NCBI GenBank assembly: GCA_934621605.1
Contig: CAKTUZ010000012.1
Location: forward strand, 12,074 to 76,073
Direction: 5' to 3'
Length of the DNA stretch: 64,000 nucleotides
Source: an uncultured bacterium
GTDB lineage: Bacteria; Vulcanimicrobiota; Xenobia; Xenobiales; Xenobiaceae
Shown: piece after piece, positions 1-19,023 of the stretch
Layout: each line of letters starts with the position of its first letter
Numbering within the stretch: position 1 is the stretch's first letter
The notes under the pieces: generated by a model
Seen by the model: only the letters and a program-made list of their open reading frames with translations
The model's database searches: none
What the model was told of the DNA's origin: nothing
Position numbers and translations under genes: made by a program

Positions 1-170
1 ATTATACTTTTGTATTCTAGCGTAATGTGTGAAAGCGCTGATAATGGTGAATTCATTTGGTCATATCCTAGGCTGTGCGATGGTTTGATCGTTGCAAAAT
101 CAGATAGATCGTATCGTAATTTCGTAATTTACATGAGCGCATAACATTTAAATAGGAGCCAATAAAAATA

Positions 171-1673
171 ATGAACAATGATACTGTCAATCTCCTTGCT
201 TCATATGTCGAAGCCTTATATCCCATTATCTATATCAACCACTTTGACTTCAAAGTTATTGATGACATTATTGCTAGTATTGCTGGCGATAGGAAAATTT
301 TTGAATACAATAATGGCTTAGGCTCTGTCGATTTTAAGACTAAATCGGCTATGTCGGCTATGCAAGAATGTGGCTTAACTCAATTCTTGAATGATGTCAA
401 AGACGAGGGCTACGAGCAGAATACGCTCATTGTCCTTAAGGATGTCCACAATCAACTGGACGATTCGGCAGTTATTTCTTTATTGAAATATATTGCCGAG
501 CGCAACTTGTATAACGATGAGTATAGCGCTTCTATTTTCATTGTCTCTAGTAAGCTTCATATTCCCGAAGAATTGGAAGATCTTATTACCGTTTTTGAAA
601 TACCTTTGCCGGACGATTCGGAAATTCGCAATATTATCTTGGAATTTGCTCAAGACTTAGATATTGATATTGCCGAGGACGTCTTAAACGAAATTACTAT
701 TTCCTTTAAAGGCTTAAATGAATTTCAAATTAAACAAATTCTCAATTTAGCCTATCAAGAAGGCGGTTGCTTGGACTTTGACGATAAGCAACTGATTTTC
801 CGCGAGAAAGAGCAATTGGTTAAAAAGGCCGGTTTATTAGAGATGATTTTGGTTCGTGAAGATATCAATGATATTGGCGGACTGGAAAACTTAAAAGATT
901 GGCTGGGCAAGAAAGAGCGTATTTTCAACCAGTTGGACAAGGCTATTAAGTTCGGAGTAGATATTCCCAAAGGCATGATGATTGTAGGTATGCCCGGTTG
1001 CGGTAAGAGTTTGGCCGCTAAAGCTACAGCTAAGCTATTTAAAGTGCCGCTGGTTAGGCTCGATGTGGGACGCTTATTGGGTAAGTATATCGGCGAATCG
1101 GAAGAGAATATGAGGCGAGCTTTGAAGTTAGCTGAAGCTATTAGCCCTTGCGTACTTTGGATCGACGAATTGGAAAAGGCCTTCTCCGGGATTGGCTCTA
1201 CTGGTGGCGGCAGCGACGTCACTACGCGCTTATTTGGTCAGTTCTTAACTTGGATGCAAGAAAAGGAAAATACTGTCTTTATTGTGGCTACTGCTAACGA
1301 TATTTCTCGGATTCCTCCGGAATTTTTGCGCAAAGGCCGCTTCGACGAGCTTTTCTATGTAGATTTCCCCAATAACGAAGAGCGCAAGAAAATTATAGAA
1401 ATTCACCTTAAGAAGCGCGGCAAATGGAATAGGGACTTGGACATTATCTCTGTTGTCAAAGATACCGATGGCTATAGCGGAGCCGATTTGGAAGCTATCG
1501 TTAAAGACGCCGTAGAAAGTTGCTTTGTAGAGGGAAGAAAGCAAATGACTACTGATGATCTTAAGAAAGCTCAGAAAAGTATCAAGTCTATTTCTAGTAC
1601 TCTTTCTACGCGTATTAAGCAAATAAAAGAAGCGGTTAAAGATATGGATCTTAAGCCAGCTTCTAAGAAATAA
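171..1673 (+). CDS. AAA+ ATPase of the classic clade. The N-terminal ~250 aa look like a degenerate AAA-like domain, followed by an active AAA module.
   Basis: Walker A GMPGCGKS and Walker [10 protein letters not shown], with a second region of homology carrying Arg residues ([24 protein letters not shown]). [11 protein letters not shown] linker precedes the AAA module. RBS TAGGAG lies 11 nt upstream of the ATG. Confidence 0.8.
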
Positions 1674-1737
1674 AGTAGCGTGGAATTTAGCTTTGCGTTT
1701 TAGGCTTTGGGTAGCGATAAGGTAGGTAGATAAAAAA

Positions 1738-3564
1738 ATGGAAGACAAACAAGAAGCGGAAGTATTTGATTCTTACTGCGTAGAGAAGATTTGGCCGGAA
1801 GAAAAAGCTAAGCAAGTTTTCCAAATAGAAAAAGCCTTCTTAAAAAGCTACGCTGCCTCTCAAGAGGTGCCTTTAGCCCAATGGTTGGCGCAAGAATTGC
1901 ATAAGCAATTACCGGAAAAGAGCGCTAATGAAGTTGAAGCTATAAGCAACGAAATTATTTCTGCGTTGCAAACTGCTGAAGAGATGAAAGCTTCTCAGCA
2001 AAAAGCTATTGCTATAGGCAGAAGTAAAGAGAGTTGGTTTGCTTCTAAAGTAATGCAAGCTACTGCGGATATGCCAATTTCCAAGAGAGCTGAATATTTG
2101 CAAAGCTTAGAAGAAGCTATTAAAAGCGCCAATGAAGCAACATATAAAGTAATTGCTGCAGAAAATGGCAGCAGTAATTCTGCGTCGGCTTCTGCTACTG
2201 GAGCCAAAACCGAAGCTGCTGAGAAGCGCCAAGAGTCGAATAGCGCTTTAAATATAGGCAAGCAAGCTTGTCATGCTGGGGTACAAACTGCTGCCGCTAC
2301 TGCCGGTAGAGATATTGCCCAAAAGGTTCTTAATGGAGAAGAGATTGACGGCGACGAGGTTGTAAAAAAAGCGGTAGATGCTGGCGTAGGTGAAGCAGTA
2401 AAAGTAGCGGTAGATGGCGCTACCAAGGTAGCTGAAGAGAAAGGCTGGATTTCGCATGAAGCTAAAGCCGAAGCTACTGAAAAGCGGCAGCAAGAATCGG
2501 GTAGGCAAAGCAATTCTGGAAGTTCTGAGGCTAAGCCTAAGATAAAAGAAAATGAATATACGCTGAAAAATACTGCTTTAAGTATAGGTAGACAAGCTTG
2601 TTACGCTGGTGTGCAAAATGCTGCTGTGGCTGTTGGTAGAGATCTTGCCCAAAAGGTTATCAATGGAGAAGAGATTGAAGGCGACGAGGTTGTAAAAAAA
2701 GCGGTCGATGCTGGCGTAGATGAAGGAGTAAAAGTAGCGGTAGCTGGCGCTATAAGGGTAGCTGGAGAGAAAGGCTTGATACCACAGATACAGCAGCTTA
2801 AAGGCGGCAGCGGAAATGTTTGTGCCAATGTAGCTTTTGTGGCTATCGAGAATGTCAAGGTCGCCAAGCAAGTAGCCGACGGAAGGTTGACCGTTCATGA
2901 AGGCTTAGAAGTTATGGCCCAGACAACAGGCGCTTGTGTAGCCGGAATAGCCGTAGCCGCTAAGGGAGGGGCTATAGTAGGTTCAGCATTAGGTTCACTA
3001 GTAGGCCCGGCTGGTACTGCCATAGGCGGATTTGTAGGCAACGCCGCAGGCTATATAGCCGGCTCTACCATTGGCGGTGCAGTAATGCAAGGTGTCAAGG
3101 AACTATATAATACAGCTTGTGATATAGTTAAAGATGTAGCCAGCACAGCGGTAAATTGCATAGGATCTGCGCTAAGTACAGCGGCAAGTTGTGTAGAGAA
3201 TAAAATCGATAACATACTCAGTGGTGGTGGCGGCGGTTGTTACATTACTACCGCTACTTGCCAAGAGTATGGCAAGGGTGACAATTGTTATGAATTGACA
3301 ATGTTCCGTTCCTTCCGTGATATGTGGCTTAGAAAGCAGCCTGACGGTGAGCAATTGATTAAGCACTATTATGCTACAGCTCCGGCTCTTGTTGAGTTAA
3401 TCAATAAACAACCTAACCGCCGCGCTATTTATCGCCATTTAAATGAAGCTTATCTTTCCAAGTGTTTGCGATACATTGAAGATGGCGAAAATATTAAGTG
3501 CAAAGAGCTTTATGTTGACATGGTTGAATTTTTATACGGTGAGCAACAAAGGTGGCAAAAGTAA
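1738..3564 (+). CDS. Large hypothetical protein with a helical N-terminal region, two ~105-aa tandem repeats, a glycine-zipper hydrophobic segment and a Cys-containing C-terminal globular domain (GGGGGCYITTATC...CYEL...).
   Basis: 608-aa ORF starting 64 nt after the AAA ATPase on the same strand. Gly-zipper run GACVAGIAVAAKGGAIVGSALGSLVGPAGTAIGGFVGNAAGYIAGSTIGG. The product is not recognised. Confidence 0.6.
   Translation: MEDKQEAEVFDSYCVEKIWPEEKAKQVFQIEKAFLKSYAASQEVPLAQWLAQELHKQLPEKSANEVEAISNEIISALQTAEEMKASQQKAIAIGRSKESWFASKVMQATADMPISKRAEYLQSLEEAIKSANEATYKVIAAENGSSNSASASATGAKTEAAEKRQESNSALNIGKQACHAGVQTAAATAGRDIAQKVLNGEEIDGDEVVKKAVDAGVGEAVKVAVDGATKVAEEKGWISHEAKAEATEKRQQESGRQSNSGSSEAKPKIKENEYTLKNTALSIGRQACYAGVQNAAVAVGRDLAQKVINGEEIEGDEVVKKAVDAGVDEGVKVAVAGAIRVAGEKGLIPQIQQLKGGSGNVCANVAFVAIENVKVAKQVADGRLTVHEGLEVMAQTTGACVAGIAVAAKGGAIVGSALGSLVGPAGTAIGGFVGNAAGYIAGSTIGGAVMQGVKELYNTACDIVKDVASTAVNCIGSALSTAASCVENKIDNILSGGGGGCYITTATCQEYGKGDNCYELTMFRSFRDMWLRKQPDGEQLIKHYYATAPALVELINKQPNRRAIYRHLNEAYLSKCLRYIEDGENIKCKELYVDMVEFLYGEQQRWQK
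2233..2865 (+). repeat. Tandem in-frame duplication of ~315 bp (two ~105-aa units, ~85-90% nt identity) inside the 1738..3564 CDS.
   Basis: Units begin ESNSALNIGKQACHAGVQTAAATAGRDIAQKVLNGEEIDGDEVVKKAVDAGV and ENEYTLKNTALSIGRQACYAGVQNAAVAVGRDLAQKVINGEEIEGDEVVKKAVDAGV. Nucleotide 2281.. aligns with 2601... Confidence 0.85.
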
Positions 3565-3869
3565 ATTTTTAGCTATTACTGTCATAGACAAGGTCAGAAC
3601 GGTTTAAGGCTTTTGGCTTTTTCCATTCCTTACTGTTTATAGAAAGGCAGCTTTCGCTTTATAGCGTACAGGCTAGACGAAGGCTGCTTTTATTTTTATG
3701 GTATATTAGGGTATAACCATCTAAGCTATTATAGAAATGAAGTTGATCGAGATAATGAAAATGTTTATATACAACTCGGTGAACGGTTTCTTGGTGGTCA
3801 TTATATTTGCCTTACTGCTAGAGGTCCAGTTAGTTATGAAGACTATGTAGGCTTTCATCGCACTTATAT

Positions 3870-4418
3870 ATGCTATGCCGAACTATTAAAAAAAAGTTTT
3901 CCAATTGGCTTAATTCAGTAGAACTACTGCAAAAGTTCTGCGGCGATAGTAAAAATGCTGTCCATAAATTTATAATATTTCACCTAAAATTAGGAGCTGA
4001 TTTCTATAGAGAAAAAATGAATCAGCTCAATCGCTTTCTTTATGATTTGTATGTTTGTATGCGTACTAAGATTGATTGGTATTCATATGATTGCAATAAA
4101 ATTTCTTGCTGTGCCATTGATGATACTATAAATTTCAATTATTGGTTGTGGCAACATGGTATAGAGAAAGTTGAAAAGGGTGAATTTACTATAGGTGAAT
4201 TTTATGCTTGGTATACTAAAAAAATATTGTTATATACAACTAAGCAGTACTATCACCATTCTTTAGATTGTCCATTTTATATGAGAGGTAAATGGAAAAG
4301 AGATAGGCTCAAAGTAATTGAGTTTTTCACATCAAGGGTGCGTCATAAGGAGTTTTTTACTGAGCATTTTGGTGATGTTAGAAAGATGCCTTTGCCAAAC
4401 TATGCAAAGATTAGTTAA
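3870..4418 (+). CDS. Hypothetical protein, Cys/Tyr/Trp-rich, in an AT-rich islet.
   Basis: 182-aa ORF with no recognisable domain. Local GC is lower than the flanks. Confidence 0.35.
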   Translation: MLCRTIKKKFSNWLNSVELLQKFCGDSKNAVHKFIIFHLKLGADFYREKMNQLNRFLYDLYVCMRTKIDWYSYDCNKISCCAIDDTINFNYWLWQHGIEKVEKGEFTIGEFYAWYTKKILLYTTKQYYHHSLDCPFYMRGKWKRDRLKVIEFFTSRVRHKEFFTEHFGDVRKMPLPNYAKIS

Positions 4419-4509
4419 TTAAATTTATATGGAGACGTTTTTGAGATATTTGGCAAAAAGTTTAATGTGTACGTGAAGAGTACTATTTAGAAGAGGAGTT
4501 TAGTATGTT

Positions 4510-4791
4510 GTGAGCAGACGTGAAGAAGATTATTATGCTTCTAGTGGATGTGTGCAAGATATGATGGAATCAATGTTCTCAGCAAAGCATGTAGATGATA
4601 TTGAAACTATCGAAGATAAGATAATTTTCTTTAGCAAGTTAATTGTCGATGAGGATACTTTGAGTGATCTTGCATTCTGGAATAACTTTTTTACTAATCG
4701 CATAAACGAGTTTAAACAACGTTATAAAGAACTAACTGGGAAAGAATATGATGAGAAAAATACAGAGAATTATGCAAAAAATATCAGTTAA
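4510..4791 (+). CDS. Hypothetical small acidic protein.
   Basis: 93-aa ORF in the AT-rich islet. The start is uncertain. Confidence 0.25.
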   Translation: MSRREEDYYASSGCVQDMMESMFSAKHVDDIETIEDKIIFFSKLIVDEDTLSDLAFWNNFFTNRINEFKQRYKELTGKEYDEKNTENYAKNIS

Positions 4792-4827
4792 AATATAACT
4801 AAAAGACAAAAGCTAGGAGCGTAAAAC

Positions 4828-5097
4828 GTGTGTAGTAATTCAGAAGATTATGATCCAGACGGGAAGTTTAATTTGCCTATGACTTTCAAAAAAAACTTTG
4901 GCTGTCTTATCACAGACGACATGGTAAAAGAATTGATAGTAAGCTTGCTTAAGAGAAAATCTATAACACAAGATGAACTTCAAAAGCATGGAATTTTGGA
5001 AAGCTCTATCGAGAAATATGGCCTTGAACACCTTGTTGCCGGTGGATATAAAAAACAGTCTGCAACCAACAATATGCCAGGAGAGAAAAATGTTTGA
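4828..5097 (+). CDS. Hypothetical small protein with a GTG start.
   Basis: 89-aa ORF with AGGAGCG upstream. Its end overlaps the start of the next gene by 8 nt. Confidence 0.25.
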   Translation: MCSNSEDYDPDGKFNLPMTFKKNFGCLITDDMVKELIVSLLKRKSITQDELQKHGILESSIEKYGLEHLVAGGYKKQSATNNMPGEKNV

Positions 5098-6415
5098 AAG
5101 TCAAAATATAGAATGGAAAAGTAAATGGAAAGACGAGTATCTAGAATGGATTTGCGGTTACGCAAATGCGCAAGGTGGTAAAATTTGTATTGGCTGTGAC
5201 GACAACGGAAATGTAGTCGGTCTACCTAATGCTCGTAAGCTTCTGGAGGATATTCCCAACAAAATTCGTGACACTATGGGTATAATCGTTGGTGTCAATT
5301 TATTAAGCGTGGAGGATAAGGAATATATTGAAGTTGATGTTCCGTCTTACCCAATTGGTATCTCCTGCAAAGGCGTGTATTATTATCGCAGTGGTAGCAC
5401 AAGACAAGTATTAACAGGGCCTGCGTTAGAAGCGTTTTTGATGCGTAAACGTGGCGTTACATGGGATAATCTTCCACTGCCAGCTTTTTCAATAAATGAT
5501 ATTGATGATGGAATTGTGGCACGTTTCAAACAATTAGCAATAAGAAAAGGACGTATTGACGAGAGCTTGTTGGATGAATCCAAAGAAACTCTGATGGAAA
5601 AGTTGCATCTGATGAATGGCAATTACTTGACTAATGCAGCGATGTTACTTTTTAGTAAAGACCCAGAAAAATGGCAGCTCGGAGCGTACGTTAAGCTTGG
5701 ATATTTTGAAACGGATGCAGATCTTGTGTACCAAGATGAAATTCACGGTTCTATTCTGGAGCAGATTGATAAAATTGTAGAACTAGTGCATCTTAAATAT
5801 ATGAAAGCAAGGATAACCTATGATGATATGCAGAGGCTCGAGCGTTACTTTGTCCCTGAAGCTGCCTTGCGAGAAGCTCTCTTGAATGCTTTGTGTCATA
5901 AACAATATCAATCTGGCGTTCCCATTCAGATTAGTGTTTATGAAGATAAACTATACATTGCTAATTGTGGTTGCCTACCTGAAAAGTGGACATTAGAAAA
6001 TTTAATGCGCAAGCATGCTTCTGTTCCATACAACCCTAATATCGCTCATGTTTTCTATTTAGCCGGTTTTATTGAAAGTTGGGGACGCGGCATAGAAAAG
6101 ATTTGTTCATCTTGCAAAAAAGACGGCGTTCCACAGCCAGAGTATACTATCAATCCAGGCGATATTATGATTCAGTTTACTGCTCCTGTAGTTCAAACTA
6201 TTCGCCCAAATAGGATGACTGTAAAGGTTAACGATAATGAATATGCTTTGCTTAAACTTATTTCTGAAGATCCTGGCTATACCATGTCTCAGTTGTCGGA
6301 CAAACTTAATATAAGTAGAAAGACAGTTGCACTGCGTATAAAAGGACTTAAGGAAAGGGGCATTATTGAGCGGATCGGTTCAGATCGCAATGGACATTGG
6401 AATGTAAAATTGTAA
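5090..6415 (+). CDS. Schlafen-like ATP-binding protein with AlbA_2-type N-terminal domain, HATPase_c_4-like middle region and C-terminal winged HTH (often annotated as a putative transcriptional regulator or RecG-like DNA-binding protein).
   Basis: MFESQNIEWKSKWKDEYLEWICGYANAQGGKICIGCDDNGNVVGL is typical of AlbA_2, and the C-terminal tail is YTMSQLSDKLNISRKTVALRIKGLKERGIIERIG. RBS GGAGAG lies before the ATG at 5090, in frame with track ORF 4973. Confidence 0.75.
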   Translation: MFESQNIEWKSKWKDEYLEWICGYANAQGGKICIGCDDNGNVVGLPNARKLLEDIPNKIRDTMGIIVGVNLLSVEDKEYIEVDVPSYPIGISCKGVYYYRSGSTRQVLTGPALEAFLMRKRGVTWDNLPLPAFSINDIDDGIVARFKQLAIRKGRIDESLLDESKETLMEKLHLMNGNYLTNAAMLLFSKDPEKWQLGAYVKLGYFETDADLVYQDEIHGSILEQIDKIVELVHLKYMKARITYDDMQRLERYFVPEAALREALLNALCHKQYQSGVPIQISVYEDKLYIANCGCLPEKWTLENLMRKHASVPYNPNIAHVFYLAGFIESWGRGIEKICSSCKKDGVPQPEYTINPGDIMIQFTAPVVQTIRPNRMTVKVNDNEYALLKLISEDPGYTMSQLSDKLNISRKTVALRIKGLKERGIIERIGSDRNGHWNVKL

Positions 6416-6457
6416 AAAAATACTATTTTTGCAATGATTGTAAGGTGACTGATCATA

Positions 6458-6532
6458 GTAAAGGTGACTGTAAAGGTGACTGTAAAGGTGACTGTAAAGG
6501 TGACTGTAAAGGTGACTGTAAATTGTTGGAGG
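6458..6532. repeat. 12-bp minisatellite TAAAGGTGACTG, about 6 perfect tandem copies.
   Basis: Direct reading gives aaggtgactg taaaggtgactg ... Six-frame ORFs MTVKVTVKV (+) and HLYSHLYS (-) are artefacts of the repeat. Confidence 0.9.
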
Positions 6533-6541
6533 TTTCAACGC

Positions 6542-6736
6542 ATGGATAAAGATGATAAACCAGTTTGGGAAGAATTTCCGCCATCTAAATATAATTGTTC
6601 GTTGTCTCGTTATACATTCTATTTGACGACAGATCCAGATTTTTATGATAAATATAGAGATAAAGAAATAGTACTTGCTAAGGCAAAAGAAGCTGTAGAA
6701 TGGGTTTGTCAATTTCCAGAAGTAAGTATGCTTTGA
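6542..6736 (+). CDS. Hypothetical small protein of 64 aa.
   Basis: GGAGG lies 9 nt before the ATG at 6542. Sequence MDKDDKPVWEEFPPSKYNCSLSRYTFYLTTDPDFYDKYRDK. Confidence 0.35.
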   Translation: MDKDDKPVWEEFPPSKYNCSLSRYTFYLTTDPDFYDKYRDKEIVLAKAKEAVEWVCQFPEVSML

Positions 6737-6788
6737 GGAAATGCTTAAATTCCAACAGATATAAAATATACCAAGGAGATAAAAACAA

Positions 6789-7241
6789 ATGAAGATGACA
6801 GTTTCCAGAGCTTTGAAAGAGCGGGCGCGTTTAGCTGGTAAATTAGGGGAAATATTTAAGCTTATAAGAAACGAAAACTCAGTTTTAGCTGGAGCAACTC
6901 GCACTTGTGATATTCGGGAAAAATTTGTTGAATATAAAAGTATTGTCAAGAAAATGACCGCAATTAAGGCAGCCGTTACTAAAGCAAATGCCGATATCGC
7001 TGCCGAATTAGCTGAACTAGCTGAAACAAAATCAATGATAACTCAGCTTAAAAGTATAAACGTTGTAGAAGGCAAACAGCGTGAATCTGGCTACAGCGGA
7101 GCTTCTGAATACGAAATGGAAGCGGCTATCAGTAAAGCAGAGTTATATCGTGAGCTTGAACTATTGCAAGATAGGGCTAATATGTTGCAAGATAAGATTG
7201 ATGAATTCAACGCGAAAACTTCAGTCGAAGTTGAGCTTTGA
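6789..7241 (+). CDS. Hypothetical coiled-coil protein.
   Basis: RBS AAGGAGA 7 nt upstream. 150 aa, helical and charged with heptad-like composition. Confidence 0.45.
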   Translation: MKMTVSRALKERARLAGKLGEIFKLIRNENSVLAGATRTCDIREKFVEYKSIVKKMTAIKAAVTKANADIAAELAELAETKSMITQLKSINVVEGKQRESGYSGASEYEMEAAISKAELYRELELLQDRANMLQDKIDEFNAKTSVEVEL

Positions 7242-7449
7242 ATTAAATCCTGAATGGCAGACTAGTCCGCTTTATGAAACAATGAAAAGCAAACTGGCCT
7301 TAGGGTCTAACCGATAAAGTATAGAGATAGCTGACAAAGATAAACCCACAATGTATTGCACGTTGAAAACTCAATTTTCAGTTATTAAACTTTAAGGTTA
7401 AAAACTTATCTGTTAAAATTTAGTATTGGATTAGTTTGGCTATTTAGGT

Positions 7450-7485
7450 CAAGAGAGCTTCTGCGGAGGCTCTCTTGTTTTTTTT
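7450..7485 (+). terminator. Rho-independent terminator.
   Basis: Perfect 9-bp stem CAAGAGAGC/GCTCTCTTG with a 10-nt loop, followed by TTTTTTTT. Confidence 0.6.
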
Positions 7486-7597
7486 ATGCTTTAGCCGTTA
7501 CTTTTTTGTGATTAACGTATATCCTTAAAGCAAGAGTTTGAGTGGTAAATATAAAATATAGTACGGCTGTATCAAGCAATGGCTTTAATGTTGATAA

Positions 7598-9391
7598 TTA
7601 GGCAATTAGCTTATTTAATGGCAAGTTAAAGTCTGTCTTTAAGCAGTAAAAATAGGGGAAAATAATACCCTCAAAGTAACCAATAGATGCTTTTGTCGGC
7701 CTATTATAAAGAACTTCTCTAGTTTGCTTTTGCAATTCTCCCACAAATTCGGCGTAGCTTTCACTGGCAATAACTGTCAGTACATTAACGTTATGTACAT
7801 TATCTTTTAAGATGTCGGCATCCATGCGAGTTCCTTGCTTATTGACACAAAGACGCAAACCGCGGCCAACTTCTTGGCGTTTTTGCACAGTGCTGTCGCT
7901 GCGTTTTTAAAGTACAAATTTGGAAAATGTTGGGATTATCCCAACCTTCACGCAAAGCTGAATGTGAGAAAATAAAGCGTGTAGGTTCGTCAAAAGAAAG
8001 CAAACGCTCTTTATTTTTTAAGATCAGATCATAAGCGGAGATATCGTCAGAAATATCAGTACCGCGCTTTACAGAACTGTTTATACTGCGGCCTTTTTTA
8101 TCTATACTGAAATAACCTCGATGTACTTTATGAACTTCACTTTGTCTTAAATAATGCAAATACTTTTCATATTTTTTGCCTAAAAAATTGCACAATTCAT
8201 CAATAATTTTAGTGTATTCTTCTTCAAATATTTGGCCATATTCTCCTAAAAGCTCTTGGCCGTTTTCGTCATACTGGCGATACTTAGCCACCTCGTCGAT
8301 AAAGAAAAGTGAAAGCGTTTTGATACCTTTAGCAAAAAGCTTTTTCTCTTTTTCAATATGGGAAAGAATAGTTTCTCTAATTTGTACTCGACGTAAAGTC
8401 TTTTCGGAAGCGTCGCCAACTACTTCGCCTTTGCGCAACTTTTCACCATTGGTAAAAGTTACTATACCAATATAAGGATCAATATCAATAATGGCCAATT
8501 CTTTGTATTGTTCCATATTGTTGGATTCATAGTAGAGATTATCGCCGACTTCTAGAGTGTGGATTTCACGCTTAATGCCGCTTTTGTGAGCTACTTCAAG
8601 TTCTAGCTTAACTTTGGGAGCATGCTTAGCGGAAAGGACGATACTTTGCAAATATAAATACTTATCGGTACCGCGCAAGTTTTTAACTTCGAAGCCTTTA
8701 ACTTCTATTTTATTACCGCCACGTTCAGCTAAGCCTTTTTCTTCACTCATAGAAGTATTAAAAGCTTGAGTATTGATAATCATAACACGTTAATAGCCGA
8801 ACTACTGGAAAAAGAGTCCAAGGCGGTTAGATTGTCGCTATCATAAACAAAGAAGCAAGCCTTTTGGCCGTAGTATTCGTGGAAGTGATCGGCAGTAATT
8901 TCAAACGACTTCTTGACGCCTTCGCGAATAGCAATACTAGGTACTACTACGATAAATTTGCTCCAGCCGTAGCGCTTATTAAGCTCAAACATAGTCTTGA
9001 TATAGACATAAGTTTTGCCAGTACCAGTTTCCATTTCTATATCGAGAGAGCAACGTCCTAAACCGTAAGCGGTTACCAAATTATTGGAAATAGTCAAGTT
9101 GTTTTCCGCTTGCAAAACTTGGATATTATGGAGCAATTGTTCGTTAGTTAAGCGCACAGCCGTATTTTTATAGCCGTTTTCATTAACTGACTCGCGAAAG
9201 TCGATGCGGTTCACATCATCTTCTAGCGTATTGGTAGGCAGCTCAAATTGTTGCTGATGGATATTATCTAGAATAGTACCTAGATCGCGGCGGTATCTAT
9301 CATTTTCGCCTTTAGGCTGGCCTTGAAAAATGCGTACTACAGCTTCGACAGCCTCGGTTTGGTATGGCTGAATCTTAAAATGGAACTTCAT
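7598..9391 (-). pseudogene. res: Type III restriction enzyme Res subunit (SF2 helicase). It is split into three ORFs by two frameshifts and is C-terminally truncated, with no endonuclease domain after motif VI.
   Basis: Track ORFs 8780..9391 ([16 protein letters not shown]...ETGTGKTYV, motif I), 7839..8783 and 7598..7888 (QEVGRGLRLCVNKQG, motif VI) are collinear on the minus strand in different frames. Confidence 0.7.
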
Positions 9392-9394
9392 CTT

Positions 9395-9721
9395 TTAAAG
9401 CACTTTCGTTGTCGTATCGGGACTGTAAGCTTTGAAAATTTGCTCAAAGTTGGTAGCTAAGCTGTCATTGAAAAGAGAACTATCGCGCAAAACAGCATAA
9501 ATAGGCGTTTCTTTGGCAATAGCGGTAACTACCTCTTCAGTAATATTAGGCTCAAAGCAAGCGATTAAATAATTACCGTTAACTTTAAAAACTTTGTGGC
9601 CGGCAATATCGACAGTTTCTATAGGCGAAGAAAGCTCCAAGCTAAGTTCGAGCATAACTTGGAAAAGCAAGTCCTCGGCGCTGCGATCGTCTTTAACGTT
9701 ATCGATTAGCTCATCTCTGTC
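9395..9721 (-). pseudogene. mod: Type III R-M Mod methyltransferase, C-terminal ~109 codons only.
   Basis: Minus-strand frame reads DNVKDDRSAEDLLFQVMLELSLELSSPIE...NFEQIFKAYSPDTTTKVL, matching the conserved C-terminal tail of Mod proteins. The frame is closed by a stop at 9722-9724, so no N-terminal MTase domain remains. Confidence 0.65.
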
Positions 9722-9807
9722 CTAAAAAATTAGCTGCTAACTGGAATACTTATAAAGATAACTACGTTAACAATCCTATTTCCGGCGATCGTCTCAATTA
9801 TGATGTA

Positions 9808-12117
9808 TTGTTCCATACTGATTTATCCAGGACGTCTGGTGTGTCAAATGGCATTGATTTATCTCGTTTCAATTGGAGCAATTACGACTTAATAGTTATT
9901 GACGAATCACACAATTTCCGCAACGGTATAGGCACTCGCCAGGGCGAAAATCGCTACCAAAAACTTATAAATAAAGTGCTGCGCAGTGGCGTTAAAACTA
10001 AAGTGCTTATGCTTTCGGCAACTCCAGTTAATAACAACTTTAGCGATTTAGAAAACCAGCTGGCTTTAGTTTATGATGGCGGCGACTCTTCTAAATTAGA
10101 TGAAAAGCTCAATACCTCTAAAAGCATCAACAATATTTTTACCCAAGCTCGCAGTGCTTTTAAAGAGTGGAGTAGATTATCTATTGAAAAGCGCACTACC
10201 GATACTTTATTAAAGAAGCTTGACTTTGATTTTTTCGAACTTTTAGACAGTTTAACTATCGCACGTTCGCGAAAGCATATCGTTAAATATTACAATACAA
10301 CAGAAATAGGCGTTTTCTCCCATAAAAATAGGCCCATTTCTTTGCGTCCGCCTCTTACCAACATAAGTAACTTAAATTCAGCAGCTACTTATAGCAAAAT
10401 TTATGGGCAGCTTATGACTCTCAGTTTAGAAGTTTACACACCTTTTAAGTATATTTTGAAAACTAAAAAAGACGAGTATATTAGGAAGCTGGCTCGCAAG
10501 CAAAGCAGTAAATTATCTGATGATAAAAAGCTAAAATTCTTTGAAGGGCGCGATAATGGCGTCATTCGTTTAATGGCTACTAACCTTCTGAAGCGTTTGG
10601 AAAGTTCTATCCATTCTTTCAAAATTACTTTAGAAAAAATGATCTTTTTAATTGATAATACAATTAAAAAGATTGATGATTATGAAAATGAAAGTTTAAT
10701 TCACCAAACTGCTAGTAAGGAAATTGACACTTTTGAGCTCTCAAACAGCGAAGATTTGGATATTAGCGATGAAGAAACAGAGTTTTTCACCGAAAGTAAA
10801 AGGGTAAAAATTGCTATTGCTGATATGGATTATGTAACTTGGCGTGCTAGTTTGCGAAAAGACGTAGCTATTCTAAAAGATGTAGCTAAAGCGGTACAAA
10901 ATATTACTCCAGAACATGATGCCAAATTGCAAGAATTATTGCATTTAATCTCTTCTAAAATTGAGCATCCTATCAACGTCGGCAATAAAAAGATCATTAT
11001 TTTTTCAGCTTTTTCTGATACAGCTAGTTATCTTTACGATTATGTCAGTCAATATGTAAAAGCTAAATATGACTTAAATTCTGCACTTGTTACTGGCGAT
11101 AAGGAAAAAACAAATTTAAAAGTTGAATGTAGTAAAGCTCTTCGCTTAAACGATATTTTGACCTATTTTTCGCCTATTTCTAAAGATCGAGACAAGATCT
11201 TTCCTGGCAGCCGAGATGATATTGATATTTTAATTGCTACCGATTGTATTTCTGAAGGTCAAAACTTACAAGATTGCGACTATTTAGTCAATTATGATAT
11301 TCACTGGAACCCTGTGCGCATTATTCAGCGCTTTGGACGTATAGATCGTATTGGCAGCCACAATAAGTGTATCCAGCTAGTCAATTTTTGGCCCGACGTA
11401 AACTTAGACGATTATATCAGTTTAGAAGATCGCGTCAGAGATCGCATGAAACTTACCGTCATGGTTAGTACGGGTGATGATAATCCCATTAGCGAAGAAA
11501 AAGGCGACTTAGAGTATCGCAAGCGCCAGTTACAACGTTTACAAAATGAAGTTATCGATATTGACGAAGACTCTGAAGGCGGAATTTCCATTATGAACTT
11601 AGGCTTAAATGAATTTCGTCTCGACTTGCTCGATTATATAAAAAAACACGGACACTTAGACAAAAAGCCCTTGGGACTTTATGCTGTAGTGCCAGCTAGC
11701 CAAGATTTGCCCGAAGGCGCCATATTTATTCTGAAAAACATCAATCCCAATATGAACATCAATGGCAAAAACCGCATCCATCCTTTTTATATGATCTATG
11801 TAGATAAAGATGGCCGTATCCTTTGCAATTATCTCAACCCCAAGAAGTTGCTGGACGATGTGCGTTTACTTTGTCGCGGTAAAGCTGAGCCTATAAAGAT
11901 ACTGTGCGATAAGTTTAATACCGAAACAGATAACGGCAAAAATATGAAAGCTATGTCTAAATTGCTTAATAAAGCTATAAAATCTATTATCGATACAAAA
12001 CAAGATGAAGATGTAGACAGCTTATTTAGGCCCGGCGGTACTTCAGCTTTAGAAGGCGATATTTCCGGCTTGGAAGACTTCGAATTGGTTTGTTTCTTTG
12101 CTGTTAGGGAGCTGTAA
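9808..12117 (+). CDS. SNF2/SF2 helicase-related protein, N-terminally truncated. The frame opens at helicase motif II and is open back to 9697.
   Basis: DLIVIDESHNFRN (motif II), LSATPVNN (motif III), and C-terminal helicase motifs IIFSAFSDTASYL...IATDCISEGQNLQDCDYLVNYDIHWNPVRIIQRFGRIDRIG. Motif I and upstream domains are absent. Confidence 0.7.
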   Translation: MFHTDLSRTSGVSNGIDLSRFNWSNYDLIVIDESHNFRNGIGTRQGENRYQKLINKVLRSGVKTKVLMLSATPVNNNFSDLENQLALVYDGGDSSKLDEKLNTSKSINNIFTQARSAFKEWSRLSIEKRTTDTLLKKLDFDFFELLDSLTIARSRKHIVKYYNTTEIGVFSHKNRPISLRPPLTNISNLNSAATYSKIYGQLMTLSLEVYTPFKYILKTKKDEYIRKLARKQSSKLSDDKKLKFFEGRDNGVIRLMATNLLKRLESSIHSFKITLEKMIFLIDNTIKKIDDYENESLIHQTASKEIDTFELSNSEDLDISDEETEFFTESKRVKIAIADMDYVTWRASLRKDVAILKDVAKAVQNITPEHDAKLQELLHLISSKIEHPINVGNKKIIIFSAFSDTASYLYDYVSQYVKAKYDLNSALVTGDKEKTNLKVECSKALRLNDILTYFSPISKDRDKIFPGSRDDIDILIATDCISEGQNLQDCDYLVNYDIHWNPVRIIQRFGRIDRIGSHNKCIQLVNFWPDVNLDDYISLEDRVRDRMKLTVMVSTGDDNPISEEKGDLEYRKRQLQRLQNEVIDIDEDSEGGISIMNLGLNEFRLDLLDYIKKHGHLDKKPLGLYAVVPASQDLPEGAIFILKNINPNMNINGKNRIHPFYMIYVDKDGRILCNYLNPKKLLDDVRLLCRGKAEPIKILCDKFNTETDNGKNMKAMSKLLNKAIKSIIDTKQDEDVDSLFRPGGTSALEGDISGLEDFELVCFFAVREL

Positions 12118-12120
12118 AAA

Positions 12121-12828
12121 ATGGCAGAGGAGATTGGCAATATGTGGAACTTTCCGCCGGAAACAAAATTAGCTGCCACAAAAGCTAATGTATTTAAAGG
12201 AATGTACGAGCGATTTAATAACAGTTTGTCTATGGCGCAAAGAAGCTTGAAAAGAACTTTTAAGCGACAAATAAAAGATATACTTTGGCTCAACAAATTG
12301 GCAGCTAATACTTTACACTTAGAAAGAGAACAGCAGGCTAGGGAAATACAAGTATTTACCATTGACTTAATTGAACCTGATTTACATAGAGATATTCTTC
12401 AGCAACTGGACAGAATTGTACCTTATTACATTTTGTTTATCTTGCGCTATCAAAATAGGCGTCAGGCTATTATAGCTTATAAAGAATTTGACGAAGAAGG
12501 CAATGTATCTAAAGTTGACCCTTACTTTGGGACAGGCTGGCTAGCTGAAACAGAATCTCCATTTGAATTTAAGGCAGCTTCTTCTATAGAAGGAGTATAC
12601 ACTAATATTATACGCCAAGTAGCTGGGCCGACTTTAAGTTATTTTGATACTTCACGCTCTTTAAAAGAAAATATAGAAATTCAAACTCAACTGAAATTTC
12701 TCCAAGCACAAATAGATAATCTCAATCAAAAGATACGCAGAGAAAAGCAACCCAAAGAAAAACACAGACTGTTCGCTTGCAAAAAAGAATTTGAGGAGCA
12801 AAAGCGCCATTTCATTATCAACTTATAA
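12121..12828 (+). CDS. DUF4391-like protein.
   Basis: 235-aa ORF that starts 4 nt after the helicase stop, suggesting translational coupling. The family assignment is from memory of DUF4391 proteins encoded downstream of methylase-helicase pairs and is hedged. Confidence 0.5.
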   Translation: MAEEIGNMWNFPPETKLAATKANVFKGMYERFNNSLSMAQRSLKRTFKRQIKDILWLNKLAANTLHLEREQQAREIQVFTIDLIEPDLHRDILQQLDRIVPYYILFILRYQNRRQAIIAYKEFDEEGNVSKVDPYFGTGWLAETESPFEFKAASSIEGVYTNIIRQVAGPTLSYFDTSRSLKENIEIQTQLKFLQAQIDNLNQKIRREKQPKEKHRLFACKKEFEEQKRHFIINL

Positions 12829-13099
12829 AAATGGTATATAATACATACCAAAATAATACTATAAATATATAAATATATTTTATAACTTCCTATTTTTTAA
12901 GGTTTTATGTATTAAAAATAATAAATTAGTCTCTAATACTCTTGACTAATAATTTTGCTTTTGCTATATTCTGGGTAACAAAACTGCATATATAACCTCA
13001 TCCTCTTAAAATCTTATAACAATCAGTGCTGCGTAAATTATGCGGCACGTAAATGGCCTCTGAATAGTCGATAACAGAGGCTTATTTATTTCCTGGCTA

Positions 13100-13118
13100 T
13101 TTTTATGTATAATTTTGT
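13100..13118 (+). promoter_or_regulatory. Extended -10 promoter candidate (TGTATAAT).
   Basis: tttttatgTGTATAATtttg sits ~70 nt upstream of the 13185 start. A TTGACT-N17-TATATT pair also occurs at 12942-12970. Confidence 0.35.
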
Positions 13119-13184
13119 AGAAGATTTGACTTTTGTACCATAAATAGTGTTGTTTTTTTATGGAGAGGGGAATTTATTATTAAA

Positions 13185-14615
13185 ATGAATGCTGACCGGT
13201 TTGAGCAAATATTAGAAATTGGCGAAACAGTTGCCGTTGAATTTAAACGTTGCGGAAACGGCATAGAAGATGATGTCTATGAAACGGTTTGTTCATTTCT
13301 AAACAGGTTTGGTGGAGATATTTTTTTGGGCATTTTAGATGACGGTACAGTTTGCGGAGTTCCTGAAAAAGCAGCACCTGATCTTATAAAAAATTTTATC
13401 AAGCGTATTAGCAACCAAAACAGTTTCACTCCAACAGTATACTTAGCTCCTGAAATTCTTGATTATAATGACAGAACTGTTATCCATATACACGTTCCGC
13501 CTAGCGCTGAAGTGCATAAATTTAAGGGTATAATTTATGATCGCATTGATGATTCTGATGTAAAAGTAAGTGCTACATCTCAAATTGCGCAGATGTACAT
13601 TCGTAAGCAAAACATATTTACTGAACGTAAGGTATACCCCTACGTTGAAATGGCTGATTTGCGCTTAGATTTACTTCCTAAATTACGCCTTATGGCAGCA
13701 AATAGTAGTAGCAATAAACAACATCCTTGGATGAGCATGTCTGATGAAGAACTTTTTAAAAGCTCAAGGCTATACAGTATGGATCGCGCTACTGGAGAAA
13801 AAGGTTTAAATCTGGCAGCAGTTATGCTATTAGGTAAAGATGATGTCATCGCTGACATTGTGCCGACTTACGTTACAGATGCCCTCTTGAAAAGGGTAAA
13901 TATTGATCGCTATGATGATAGAGAAATTATAAAAACTAATCTAATCGAAAGCTATGAGCAACTTATGGAATTTGGTCGTAAACATTTATCTGATAAATTT
14001 TTCCTTGATGGAGACCAAAGAAAAAGTTTGCGTAACATAATTACACGCGAAATTGTGGCCAATACGCTTATTCATAGGGAATTTACTAGCTCTTATCAAG
14101 CTAAGTTTATTATAGAGTCTGATAAAATGTACGTTGAGAATGCTAGTAGAGCTGTGCAAAACGCTATTATAACTTTGGATAATTTAGAGCCAAATCCCAA
14201 AAATCCTATAATTGCCGCTTTTTTCAGAAATATAGGTTATGCCGATCAACTTGGTTCAGGCGTTAGAAATTTATTCAGATATAGCAAATATTATTCAGGC
14301 CAAGATCCAGAATTTTTTGAAGGTGATATTTTTAGAATTATAGTGCCTTTAGATGGAGCTACTACCCAAGCTACCCAAGTTACTACCCAAGTTACCCAAG
14401 CTACTACCCAAGTTACCCAAGCTCGATCTATTGATAGTGAACAAAAAATTGTAAATTTACTTCAGCAAAATCCGAGCGCTTCGCAAGCGGAAGTTGCTGC
14501 AAAACTCGGGATCAGCGTTAATGCAGTCAAGTATTATATCAGAAAGTTACGCGATCTCGGGCATTTAGAACGAGTTGGCTCTCCGCAAAAAGGTAAATGG
14601 ATAGTAAAATCTTAG
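13185..14615 (+). CDS. Schlafen-like ATP-binding protein (AlbA_2 + HATPase_c_4-like + C-terminal wHTH), paralog of 5090..6415.
   Basis: VAVEFKRCGNGIEDDVYETVCSFLNRFGGDIFLGILDDGTVCGV, with C-terminal QAEVAAKLGISVNAVKYYIRKLRDLGHLERVG. Confidence 0.75.
   Translation: MNADRFEQILEIGETVAVEFKRCGNGIEDDVYETVCSFLNRFGGDIFLGILDDGTVCGVPEKAAPDLIKNFIKRISNQNSFTPTVYLAPEILDYNDRTVIHIHVPPSAEVHKFKGIIYDRIDDSDVKVSATSQIAQMYIRKQNIFTERKVYPYVEMADLRLDLLPKLRLMAANSSSNKQHPWMSMSDEELFKSSRLYSMDRATGEKGLNLAAVMLLGKDDVIADIVPTYVTDALLKRVNIDRYDDREIIKTNLIESYEQLMEFGRKHLSDKFFLDGDQRKSLRNIITREIVANTLIHREFTSSYQAKFIIESDKMYVENASRAVQNAIITLDNLEPNPKNPIIAAFFRNIGYADQLGSGVRNLFRYSKYYSGQDPEFFEGDIFRIIVPLDGATTQATQVTTQVTQATTQVTQARSIDSEQKIVNLLQQNPSASQAEVAAKLGISVNAVKYYIRKLRDLGHLERVGSPQKGKWIVKS
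14344..14418 (+). repeat. Imperfect 9-bp tandem repeat (acccaagct/acccaagtt) encoding a TQ-rich linker.
   Basis: Encodes ATTQATQVTTQVTQATTQVTQA, lying between the ATPase-like region and the wHTH of the 13185 gene. Confidence 0.6.
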
Positions 14616-14673
14616 CTAGAGCTAGGATATATAGGTTGTGCATAAAAGTGGGTTCAAAAAAGAAAAACAAAAA

Positions 14674-15222
14674 ATGGAAAATATAATGTATACGAGCACT
14701 TATGATTCTGCAATTGGCAGCTTATTGCTGGCGGCTGACGATATAGGTTTAGTCGGTTTATGGCTCAATAGCGATCGCTTTTATGCCAATTTGTTGGCCA
14801 ACTGTGAGTCTGTTGTCAAAGAAACGCCTATTTTAGAGGCTGTCAAGCGTTGGTTAAACGCGTATTTTAGTGGACATGAACCAAAAGTTGAGGTGCCGCT
14901 TCATCTTATCGGCACGCCATTTCGCCAGGAAGTTTGGAAGTTACTTTTGCAAATTCCTTATGGCAAAGTAATTACATATGGAGATTTAGCTAAAAAAATG
15001 GCTGAAAAAAGGGGAGTTGAGCATATGTCTGCTCAAGCAATAGGTGGCGCTGTCGGCCATAATGAAATTTCAATTATTATTCCCTGTCATAGAGTTATTG
15101 GTGCTAATGGTAACTTAACCGGTTATGCCGGCGGAATAGATAAAAAGCTCAAATTGCTTGAGCTAGAAGGCGTAGATACGAAGAAGTTGTTTTTGCCTAA
15201 AAACTATAAAGCCAACGCCTAA
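14674..15222 (+). CDS. ogt: Methylated-DNA--protein-cysteine methyltransferase.
   Basis: PCHRVIGANGNLTGYAGG active-site motif. The start was chosen at MENIMYTS and is uncertain (the track ORF starts at 14638). Confidence 0.8.
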   Translation: MENIMYTSTYDSAIGSLLLAADDIGLVGLWLNSDRFYANLLANCESVVKETPILEAVKRWLNAYFSGHEPKVEVPLHLIGTPFRQEVWKLLLQIPYGKVITYGDLAKKMAEKRGVEHMSAQAIGGAVGHNEISIIIPCHRVIGANGNLTGYAGGIDKKLKLLELEGVDTKKLFLPKNYKANA

Positions 15223-15409
15223 TATTGCTAAGTTATTTTATAGCTTAGTGCACGCACATATGAATGGCCTCTGTTTAGTTAAGGAACAAAGGCTTTATTG
15301 TATATTTGGCGATCATGAAGTGAATATTTTATTGTAGGTATTTTGCCACCAAGCTCAAAAGGGCAGTTCGCATATTTGTAGTTTGATAGCGGAAAAGGAA
15401 GCAATAAAA

Positions 15410-16378
15410 ATGGACTTAAATCAACTAACAAGAAAAGTTCTTGATGGCGACCAAATTACTAAAGAAGAAGCACTTTTCTTGTACGGACAGCCTCTTTTAG
15501 AACTATGTGAAAAGGCTAATCAAATTCGTCAGCATTTTTGTGCTAATAAATTTGATATTTGTACAATTATCAATGCTAAAAGCGGAAAATGTTCTGAAAA
15601 TTGCAAGTATTGTGCCCAATCAGCTCACAATCATACCAATGCTGTCACTTATCCGCTTCTTTCTGAGAAAGAAATTGTCGATCAAGCTAAAGTTGATCAT
15701 GAGCAAGGAGTCCTTCGTTACTCAATTGTAACTTCAGGAAAGCGCTTATCTGATGCAGAAATAGATGCTGTTTGCGAAGCCGTTCGAGAAATTAAAGAAA
15801 AAGTTGGAATCTCTGTTTGCGTTTCCTTAGGACTATTAAATGAACAGCAATTTCGCAAGTTAAAAGAAGCTGGCGTAACAAGGGTGCATAACAATTTGGA
15901 AACTTCTCGCAGAAATTTCCCCAACGTTTGTACTACGCACAAATTTGAAGATAAAGTACAAGCAATTAAGGCTGCCCAGAAGGCCGGTCTCTCCGTTTGT
16001 AGCGGCGGCATTATGGGACTTGGCGAAACGGTCGAGGATAGGATTTATATGGCTTTTAGTTTGCGGGAACTGGGTGTACTTAGCGTGCCCGTAAATATGC
16101 TAAATGCCATTCCCGGTACGCCATTTGCTAATAATAAGAGATTAACTAATGAAGATATGTGCAGAATCGTCGCTGTCTATCGTTTTATTCTTCCCAAAGC
16201 TTCTATCCGTCTGGCCGGTGGACGAGGCTTGCTGCCAGATAAAGGAAAGAGTTGCTTGACTTCAGGAGCAAACGCTGCCATTTCTGGAGATATGTTAACA
16301 ACTGCTGGAATTACCACAAAAACAGATATGGCCTTATTAAAAGAGCTTGGGTATGAGGCAGAAATTTGCAATGAGTAA
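15410..16378 (+). CDS. bioB: Biotin synthase.
   Basis: Radical SAM motif CSENCKYCAQS. RBS AAAGGAAG lies before the ATG at 15410. Confidence 0.9.
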   Translation: MDLNQLTRKVLDGDQITKEEALFLYGQPLLELCEKANQIRQHFCANKFDICTIINAKSGKCSENCKYCAQSAHNHTNAVTYPLLSEKEIVDQAKVDHEQGVLRYSIVTSGKRLSDAEIDAVCEAVREIKEKVGISVCVSLGLLNEQQFRKLKEAGVTRVHNNLETSRRNFPNVCTTHKFEDKVQAIKAAQKAGLSVCSGGIMGLGETVEDRIYMAFSLRELGVLSVPVNMLNAIPGTPFANNKRLTNEDMCRIVAVYRFILPKASIRLAGGRGLLPDKGKSCLTSGANAAISGDMLTTAGITTKTDMALLKELGYEAEICNE

Positions 16379-16979
16379 AAATCTATTTGTTACCGGAACT
16401 GGAACAGATGTAGGTAAAACATATGTGACAGGTTTAATTGTCAAAAAGCTCAGAGAAAAGGGGATATCTGCGGCCTATTATAAGGCTGCCATGAGTGGCA
16501 ATGAACGCAGAGCGGATGACACTTTAATTCCAGGTGACGCCTTACAGGTAAAAAATATGTCTGGAATTGAGCAGCCTCTTGAAGAAATGTGTCAGTATAT
16601 TTATGAAACAGCTGTTTCTCCGCACTTGGCAGCAAAACTTGAGGGCAATCCTATTAGCATGGAATGTGTGCTGAAAAATTTTAACCATGTTTGCCAAAAG
16701 TATGATTATGTTACCATAGAAGGTTCAGGGGGAATTGTTTGTCCGCTTCGTTTTGATGAGCAAAAAATTCAACTTGAGGATTTTATTAAAGCTTGCAATT
16801 TAAGTTGCTTAGTAATAGCTGATGCGGGACTTGGTACTATCAATGCGGTTGTATTGACGATTGAATATATGAAAGCTCGCCAAATACCTATAAAAGGTAT
16901 TATCTTCAATCATTACGAGCCGGGCAACCAGTTACATGAAGATAACCGTTTGATGTGTGAAACTATGACACTGGCTTAA
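16371..16979 (+). CDS. bioD: Dethiobiotin synthetase.
   Basis: MSKNLFVTGTGTDVGKTYVTGLIV P-loop. The start overlaps the bioB stop by 8 nt. Confidence 0.85.
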   Translation: MSKNLFVTGTGTDVGKTYVTGLIVKKLREKGISAAYYKAAMSGNERRADDTLIPGDALQVKNMSGIEQPLEEMCQYIYETAVSPHLAAKLEGNPISMECVLKNFNHVCQKYDYVTIEGSGGIVCPLRFDEQKIQLEDFIKACNLSCLVIADAGLGTINAVVLTIEYMKARQIPIKGIIFNHYEPGNQLHEDNRLMCETMTLA

Positions 16980-17076
16980 ATGTAATTGCTTGTATAAAGA
17001 ATGGCGATACAAAGTTAGATCTTCCATTTGAAATTTTGGAAGGACTTTACGAATAGAGCAGAGGGACACGTATAAC

Positions 17077-18276: not shown

Positions 18277-18384
18277 GATCGCCAAATACTAATAAAAACT
18301 GTTAATTGTTGATAAAAGTATGTATATTTTGGTGAAAGTTAAGCGTTTGCCAAGATAGAGCCAGTTTGCAATAAAGGCTTGCTG

Positions 18385-18472
18385 CCCTATATTTATAGCT
18401 AGTTACGCCAAATTTAGCTATTATAAATAGTTCGGCAGCAAGCTTTATTTTTAAGCTAAAAAAAAGCCTAAA
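18385..18472 (+). terminator. Long-loop hairpin followed by a T-run, the likely bioA terminator.
   Basis: aaGGCTTGCTGCC ... GGCAGCAAGCtttattttt: a 10-11-bp stem around a ~45-nt loop that itself contains an imperfect palindrome. Confidence 0.4.
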
Positions 18473-18502
18473 TAACGCTAAAAAGCCATTTTATTACAAA
18501 AA

Positions 18503-18766: not shown

Positions 18767-19023
18767 AGTTCTTTTACCATATTGTTTATTTATAAGTTGC
18801 GCATTTTATGGCAAAATGCTCTATATAAATAAATTGATTAAACTCCCAAAAACAAATAATTCCTAACCATTGATCAGAATCACAAATAAGATCAAATTTG
18901 TATTCATAAATATAAATCCTTCCAATTGTAGTAGGCGGAAACCCACTGCCTTTAGGCTGTGGGAGGAGTCTTGTAAATTTTTGGACATTAACCTTGGTTT
19001 TCTATGTATTTTTGTATAGTAAC

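Follow-up and report, generated by a model that had tools for sequence, protein, structure and literature searches.

A mobile gene pair encoding an AAA ATPase and a glycine-zipper protein forms, with a third partner, a candidate anti-phage module

Classic AAA proteins thread or remodel protein substrates. Among the described systems closest to the locus considered here are the ATPases Cdc48/p97, VAT and PAN, the defence system IetAS, in which a classic-clade AAA protein and a non-nucleic-acid effector share a small operon (Gao et al. 2020), and the islands in which regulators of the WYL (BrxR/CapW) type accompany BREX, CBASS and other defence systems (PMC9122601). We analysed a stretch of 64,000 nucleotides from an uncultured bacterium of the Xenobiaceae (assembly GCA_934621605.1, contig CAKTUZ010000012.1, positions 12,074 to 76,073; hereafter the window), near the start of which two adjacent open reading frames (ORFs), 64 nt apart, encode a 500-residue AAA+ ATPase (171–1673) and a 608-residue protein that we call C (1738–3564). 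A preliminary description, made from the letters of the window, had pointed out this pair, its defence-like surroundings and the absence of a matching named system, and on all of these it was right; it was wrong on the size of the module and on the features taken to define the family. We suggest that the two genes, with a third named A, make up a widespread, mobile and unnamed module that acts as an anti-phage or anti-mobile-element system of the abortive-infection type, a reading to which we give a probability of roughly 0.5.

A scan of 185,579 species-representative genomes yielded 64 loci, distributed over Bacillota, Bacteroidota, Spirochaetota, Synergistota, Pseudomonadota and metagenome-assembled genomes of the UBP9/Xenobia type, six or more phyla in all, and Firmicutes of the human and animal gut and mouth often carry the module. 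Co-occurrence of the two genes in other genomes, a check set beforehand, was found: a family ATPase lies directly 5' of C in 48 of the 51 loci with enough upstream DNA. Gene A precedes the ATPase in 44 of 46 cases, and the A-AAA-C genes all share one strand, the median spacings being 2 and 12 nt. ATPase and C are thus an obligate, tightly linked gene pair, and A is their third partner. The ATPase is the most conserved component (78–80% identity over the full length between the window and Firmicutes, 60–68% for most other loci), followed by C (about 50% identity) and A (about 35–45%), which is the fastest evolving of the three; between phyla A and C stand at about 40–50%.

The preliminary description had taken the pair for a complete two-gene module at the head of the locus. 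A is equally conserved in position, and another contig with an identical C protein extends the view upstream: positions 8264–20263 of this contig, L006, equal window 1–12000 at 100% identity (an offset of 8263 bases), and 5' of the ATPase it carries two more genes of the same operon, A1 and A2. The true operon order is therefore A1-A2-AAA-C, and the window holds its 3' two-thirds, all on the plus strand. It begins within A2, whose last 47 codons and stop occupy window 1–143 (the end of the L006 ORF 7826–8407). We read an AGGAG ribosome-binding site from the sequence at 154–158, 12 nt before the ATPase start codon. Downstream of C, a terminator-like hairpin followed by a U-rich run (3643–3700; RNA fold −28.4 kcal/mol, z = −4.4, none of 200 shuffles as good) probably marks the end of the operon. 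A 118-residue gene 3' of C in some Firmicutes loci was excluded from the module, as it recurs only in close relatives (L002–L005, L054, L076–L078).

The A family has more than 1100 database relatives, all of them unannotated, and is built from a conserved N-domain, a hypervariable linker and a C-terminal beta-domain. No match to A was found in PHROG, nor by Foldseek against BFVD at E 1e-3 or better, and scans with Pfam and PADLOC detected no protease domain in A or in C. Duplicated A genes occur in the window clade and at one other locus (L041). In the present genome A1 is intact (280 residues; L006 6443–7285), and A2 (L006 7311–8407) is split into two overlapping ORFs by a frameshift in the linker, as seen against an intact 379-residue ortholog from a 92%-related genome (P0241; L011 7269–8408). 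The linker of A2 is rich in Tyr, Gly and Asn, and indels are present in it in nearly every close relative (P0241–P0258).

The ATPase consists of a family-specific N-domain followed by a classic AAA module and lid. Pfam AAA (PF00004) matches residues 269–398 at 3e-30 and AAA_lid_3 (PF17862) residues 422–465 at 1.5e-10, which places the catalytic module and lid at residues 269–465 (window 975–1565). Within it are Walker A (GMPGCGKS, 273–280), pore loop 1 (KYIG, 305–308), Walker B (D332/E333), the sensor-1 residue N376 and the two arginines of the second region of homology (SRH; RKGRFD, 387–392). These motifs are invariant in an alignment of 14 family sequences, except that the pore-loop Tyr is nearly invariant, its flanking Gly being invariant. 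All motifs of the classic AAA clade are present, including the aromatic-hydrophobic-Gly pore loop, and the intact arginine-finger module of the preliminary description was confirmed; judged by its sequence, the protein lacks none of the catalytic and substrate-threading motifs expected of a classic AAA unfoldase. The N-domain (residues 1–230, window 171–860) is conserved across the family alignment and contains no Walker A pattern or P-loop. It had been called a degenerate AAA-like half, for which there is modest support: its profile matches residues 148–228 of the clamp-loader subunit RFC5, the part from sensor 1 to the lid, at E = 2e-4. When the profile was compared by hhalign with the AAA module of the same protein, the alignment was confined to overlapping boundary residues. 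The N-domain is probably a degenerate AAA+-like alpha/beta and lid domain.

How, then, does the locus compare with the described systems? The closest solved relatives of the ATPase are the D2 modules of Cdc48/p97 (2e-63), and with Cdc48/p97, VAT and PAN it shares the catalytic module, Walker A and B, the aromatic pore loop, sensor 1, the SRH arginines and AAA_lid_3. It differs from Cdc48/p97 in having a single active AAA module, with the P-loop-less family domain in place of N and D1, and no protease partner; its scores fall below the corresponding NCBIfam cutoffs (139 versus 500 and 134 versus 803), and by wide margins it misses the NCBIfam thresholds for IteA, PAN, Cdc48, FtsH and CdvC alike. 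To IetAS it is similar in pairing a classic-clade AAA protein with a non-nucleic-acid effector in a small operon, and IetA models match at 1e-27 and 5e-25. The match, however, covers only the generic AAA module (PADLOC IetA, residues 252–488) and is weaker than that to PAN or Cdc48; the partner here is a helical glycine-zipper protein, not a subtilisin-like protease, and A and the N-domain have no counterpart. Membership of IetAS was rejected, with an NF042959 score of 88.3 bits against a cutoff of 510 and no adjacent IetS serine protease. A CBASS system with Cap6/TRIP13 and HORMA was likewise set aside, TRIP13 matching at just 2.6e-4 and no neighbour having a HORMA domain, as was an ESCRT-III/Vps4 (CdvABC) system, which would call for an ESCRT-III helical hairpin in the partner and for CdvC/Vps4-level similarity and an MIT domain in the ATPase, and which found no support. 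Neither A nor C is represented by a model in PADLOC-DB v2, in line with the earlier failure to name the system.

C is a cytoplasmic, all-helical protein whose invariant part is a glycine-zipper tract that follows an amphipathic helical unit. Its N-terminus is acidic and has neither a signal peptide nor a hydrophobic stretch. An N-terminal helical domain (residues 20–135, window 1795–2142; AlphaFold2 (AF2) predicted local distance difference test (pLDDT) 66–90) is conserved in all family members. It is followed by two repeat units, at residues 146–238 (2173–2451) and 258–348 (2509–2781), which are 64% identical (alignment score 268 against 38 ± 6 for shuffled sequences). The tandem repeats of the preliminary description are thus real, although not of about 105 residues: the copies at the DNA level (2239–2450 and 2569–2780, 86% identical) are spaced by 330 nt, which gives a period of 110 residues. 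Tandem Repeats Finder did not detect this 330-nt repeat; another repeat search did. The zipper tract that had been noted is also present, at residues 397–448 (2926–3081). It is moderately hydrophobic, lies in a region rich in G, A, V and I with a 19-residue hydropathy peak of 1.7, and holds eight GxxxG starts (residues 411, 415, 419, 426, 430, 434, 438 and 442), so that the tandem (G/A/S)xxxG periodicity runs through a hydrophobic stretch of sufficient length for a helical hairpin. No part of C is better conserved than this tract, whose glycines are invariant in 103 sequences. Related members of the family match Gly-zipper_Omp, C19orf12 and DUF6861 weakly; the window protein reaches 17.1 of the 30 bits needed for C19orf12 (PF20721), and C homologs reach about 18 of 25 for Gly-zipper_Omp (PF13488), both under the gathering scores. 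A search of PDB sequences with the C-family profile returned only noise-level matches to alpha-synuclein and tape-measure proteins.

Most members of the C family are about 505 residues long. Every member has the N-terminal helical domain, one helical unit (the second repeat of the window protein, IGKQAxYAxxQxAAxxxG...NGExIxGxEVV...), a segment KGxxGxxFANIAFVAIENVKV...TGELT and the zipper. The position of the extra first repeat in the window protein is taken in most members by another central domain (NLDGFIAEQHH...YQxKYG), and most end in ...SLFGF. This central domain (NLDGFIAEQHH...DxVI...YQxKYG; for example residues 150–290 of the protein at L002 8001–9518) has no match in Pfam or PDB, and its motif pattern may recall that of a PD-(D/E)xK nuclease. 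The Cys-containing C-terminal domain and the tandem repeat, which the preliminary description had treated as features of the family, are missing from most members; the repeat duplication, of which a sister C (P0001) has a third unit, and the C-terminal domain are both accessory features limited to particular clades.

The C-terminal domain itself, noted earlier for its cysteines, is a catalogued one, the NCBIfam CFI-box-CTERM. The last 108 residues of C, following a GGGGG linker (residues 501–608, window 3238–3561; conserved Cys 501, 508, 517, 576 and 588; AF2 pLDDT about 76–81), hold a match to NF041770 of 60.2 bits against a cutoff of 40 over residues 501–568, and the CYITTATC motif of C is common to its CFI-box relatives. 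The domain occurs in 4541 representative clusters, C-terminal in every case, as it is in all of 149 listed relatives, only two of which have a hydrophobic N-terminus. Usual carriers have Sel1 or TPR repeats, zinc ribbons, or dynamin-like or MMR_HSR1 GTPase domains; here the domain is fused to a zipper protein. From these carriers and from the rarity of hydrophobic N-termini, the CFI-box is judged to be a promiscuous cytoplasmic C-terminal module and not a surface anchor. The preliminary description had allowed for C being an S-layer or surface protein, and this alternative was rejected: C lacks a signal peptide and any SLH or anchor domain, and its CFI-box relatives are repeat-bearing or GTPase proteins of the cytoplasm. 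On C the domain is found only in the window clade and in one further protein (P0037), and a 93% identical relative (P0022) does without it. In sister strains a near-identical CFI-box is fused instead to A1-type proteins (P0267, P0275), which indicates that the domain moves between subunits of one system. We found no description of the CFI-box or of this module in the literature, including in Kaur et al. 2020.

The C and AAA genes stay paired in three or more operon architectures. In Bacteroidales/Prevotellaceae the order is C-AAA-A', where A' has the N-terminal motif of A (hhalign E = 3.5e-5). On IncF-type plasmids of Klebsiella, Enterobacter, Cronobacter and Raoultella, the operon comprises vWA, C-like, AAA, CARF4/PD-DExK nuclease, a 181-residue protein, PP2C and kinase genes. 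An example is pKP57-mcr10 of Klebsiella pneumoniae (L080 8146–17102), and about 16 other enterobacterial plasmids are further cases; the pKP57-mcr10 operon also holds a large AAA-domain protein, with a PtuAB-like pair beside it and mcr-10 some 5 kb away. The plasmid C-like protein shares 40% identity with Firmicutes C and likewise ends in ...SLFGF, the plasmid AAA protein (715 residues) is 41% identical including the N-domain, and the CARF nuclease matches PADLOC PDLC01882 at 6.5e-262. These clusters recall TerY-P and other vWA-PP2C-kinase and CARF-nuclease clusters, but such partners belong to the enterobacterial variant only, the TerY match is weak (3e-4), all of these partners are missing from the window and from the Firmicutes triads, and L006 likewise has no vWA, PP2C or kinase gene of this kind. 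Elsewhere, at L060 1058–10681 and at L069 7414–16313, two paralogous modules follow each other in a single genome, the second ATPase being about 45% identical to the first.

The surroundings of the module are those of mobile and accessory DNA. The flanks vary greatly: the 309 neighbouring ORFs fall into 258 clusters. Lachnospiraceae carry the triad as cargo on a Tn4451-like mobilizable element that encodes TnpV, MobC, a relaxase and a serine recombinase; one locus adjoins an S24 LexA-like gene and a UmuC-like gene, and another lies on a C. butyricum megaplasmid. The sole recurrent neighbour is an HTH-WYL-WCX regulator, found at 14 of 45 loci (about 30%), mostly directly upstream on the same strand, and also beside the megaplasmid copy. 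WYL/BrxR-type regulators co-localise with diverse defence systems (PMC9122601). Among 150 immediate neighbours, matches to defence models included BnzB (2e-133), PDC-M09B (1e-190), PDC-S05 (1e-170), TIR-TM (5e-115), mad3 (1.5e-26) and RmrA (3.8e-09). Other loci have JetA/JetB, SIR2_2 with DUF87, Fic, and a PtuAB-like PDC-M62 as neighbours. Named as systems, these and other neighbours include Bunzi, Wadjet, SIR2-HerA and type I restriction-modification (R-M), alongside relaxases and recombinases. The expectation that the module would lie near known defence genes elsewhere thus held, as raw neighbour counts. In a sister genome, UBA4705 (L012 11638–17786), the same chromosomal site carries the module with a single A and a C without CFI-box, and then a type I R-M system whose HsdR and HsdM were recognised by matches to PDB sequences. 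The occupation of one site by different genes suggests a variable defence hotspot.

It is the linkage of the genes, their mobility and accessory distribution, the diversification of A, the presence of WYL regulators and defence genes nearby and the embedding with CARF, vWA, PP2C and kinase genes that lead us to a role in conflict or defence. Given how classic AAA proteins are known to work, the ATPase would be expected to thread or remodel a protein substrate, for which its obligate neighbour C is the candidate, and the invariant zipper suggests membrane damage as the output. We envisage that an ATPase hexamer would engage C through its pore loops, the handle in most members probably being the conserved C-terminal ...SLFGF tail, and would either keep C soluble and inactive or remodel it upon a trigger. 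A, with its conserved N-domain, hypervariable linker and C-terminal beta-domain, may be the sensor or adaptor for a cue from the invader. Once freed, the zipper hairpin of C would insert in the membrane, oligomerise and collapse the membrane potential, stopping phage replication. In the window clade a second helical unit would have replaced the central domain of C, and the Cys-rich CFI-box, probably an assembly, metal or redox module, would have replaced the tail. A more specific version, which we put forward only tentatively, is that C and AAA form a new immune effector cassette in which an AAA unfoldase uses ATP to arm or restrain a membrane-disrupting zipper protein and which is plugged into three or more sensing architectures, with A in the triad, with A' in Bacteroidales and with vWA, CARF (cyclic-oligonucleotide), PP2C and kinase signalling on clinical Klebsiella mcr-10 plasmids; the CFI-box would be a swappable assembly or redox part found on one subunit or the other. 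We would class the module with the known "NTPase plus effector" defence systems, as one that brings two novel protein families.

Several observations weigh against a defence role through membrane damage. The case for defence is built on genomic association, with the neighbours given as raw counts. A hydropathy of 1.7 puts the zipper at the margin of what a transmembrane helix requires, AF2 models C poorly in this region (pLDDT 55 overall), and in most members the effector proper could instead be the central domain. The window copy has no adjacent WYL gene, in which respect it departs from the WYL islands; on L006 the genes upstream comprise A1, a YbaK-like gene (tRNA_edit) and a 5'-nucleotidase. 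Relatives of the ATPase also exist in lytic phages and in a streptococcal satellite. In the window strain, finally, A2 is frameshifted and the neighbouring defence genes are decayed, so that this copy may be partly inactive. Whether it is altogether a decaying remnant, of a family that may work elsewhere, seems doubtful to us: the split of A2 recurs in an independent Logan assembly (L007) and the R-M and helicase genes downstream are fragmented, but neither A1 nor the ATPase nor C is truncated or lacks a conserved residue, all three being 88–93% identical to intact orthologs in sister genomes, and the frameshift, which falls in a hypervariable linker, could reflect misassembly or be tolerated while A1 is intact.

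Of the other explanations, each of which is less well supported than defence, one gives the module a part in the maintenance of mobile elements or in competition between them, through addiction, post-segregational killing or exclusion, with C as a toxic membrane protein and the ATPase, with A, as its neutraliser. Cargo status on mobilizable transposons with relaxase and serine recombinase, the megaplasmid and IncF copies, and the high ATPase identity across phyla, which indicates recent transfer, would all suit such a role. We nevertheless consider it unlikely, since many chromosomal copies have no adjacent mobility genes and the WYL regulators and known anti-phage neighbours favour immunity, although the two roles are not mutually exclusive. 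A housekeeping or stress function is less probable still. Classic AAA ATPases of this clade disassemble ESCRT-III polymers, and C could by analogy be a membrane-associated amphipathic protein like PspA, YtxH or ESCRT-III that a Vps4-like AAA assembles or disassembles with A as adaptor; C is indeed all-helical with amphipathic segments, and searches returned weak hits on YtxH, alpha-synuclein-type repeats and CdvC. Least probable, with only a slim chance in our estimate, is a phage-derived module for the life cycle of a prophage or satellite (lysis timing, or chaperoning of virion or tape-measure proteins), its presence on islands being incidental. The ATPase matches phrog_8638 at 7e-114 and has relatives in Corndog-like, Rhodobacter and Rhizobium phages and in the streptococcal satellite Javan368, and the zipper region is weakly like tape-measure and internal virion proteins. 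But one IMG/VR scan found no relative of C, GenBank phages gave just one, on a 4.5-kb "Bacteriophage sp." fragment, A is absent from PHROG as noted above, and no phage structural genes are among the top neighbour families. In Javan368 (L008 3598–7551) an ATPase of 35% identity, again with this N-domain, comes after a 573-residue coiled-coil protein with a C-terminal transmembrane segment and a 154-residue protein, and this may be an analogous membrane-protein and AAA module on a satellite.

The remainder of the island in the window agrees with the defence-like locus of the preliminary description. Two paralogous genes with AlbA_2 (Schlafen-like), HATPase_c_4 and winged-helix domains (4973–6415 and 13185–14615) flank a region of relics, and the first of them matches a pAgo-associated PADLOC model at 4.5e-21. 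Just past this first gene, at 6458–6522, there is a perfect 12-nt tandem repeat, GTAAAGGTGACT, in 5.4 copies, which translates as (VKVT)n in one direction and as (YSHL)n in the opposite one. The relics comprise a type III res-like helicase (ResIII) in three ORFs on the minus strand (7598–9391) and, on the plus strand (9808–12828), a 769-residue SNF2-like protein with the Helicase_C half only, followed by DUF4391. The island ends at ogt and a bioB-bioD-bioA block (14638–18276), and a TnpB gene (OrfB_IS605 / Cas12f1-like TNB; 19475–20614) lies about 1.2 kb 3' of this block.

If the reading as a defence module is correct, it would define a defence family unlike the known systems in its core, which joins a Cdc48-like unfoldase to a glycine-zipper protein; for two of the three proteins no fold relatives can be recognised. 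Were the triad protective, it would also give the widespread and unstudied CFI-box its first functional context. The presence of the module on mobilizable transposons and on resistance plasmids of Klebsiella and Enterobacter would give it a bearing on phage therapy and plasmid ecology.

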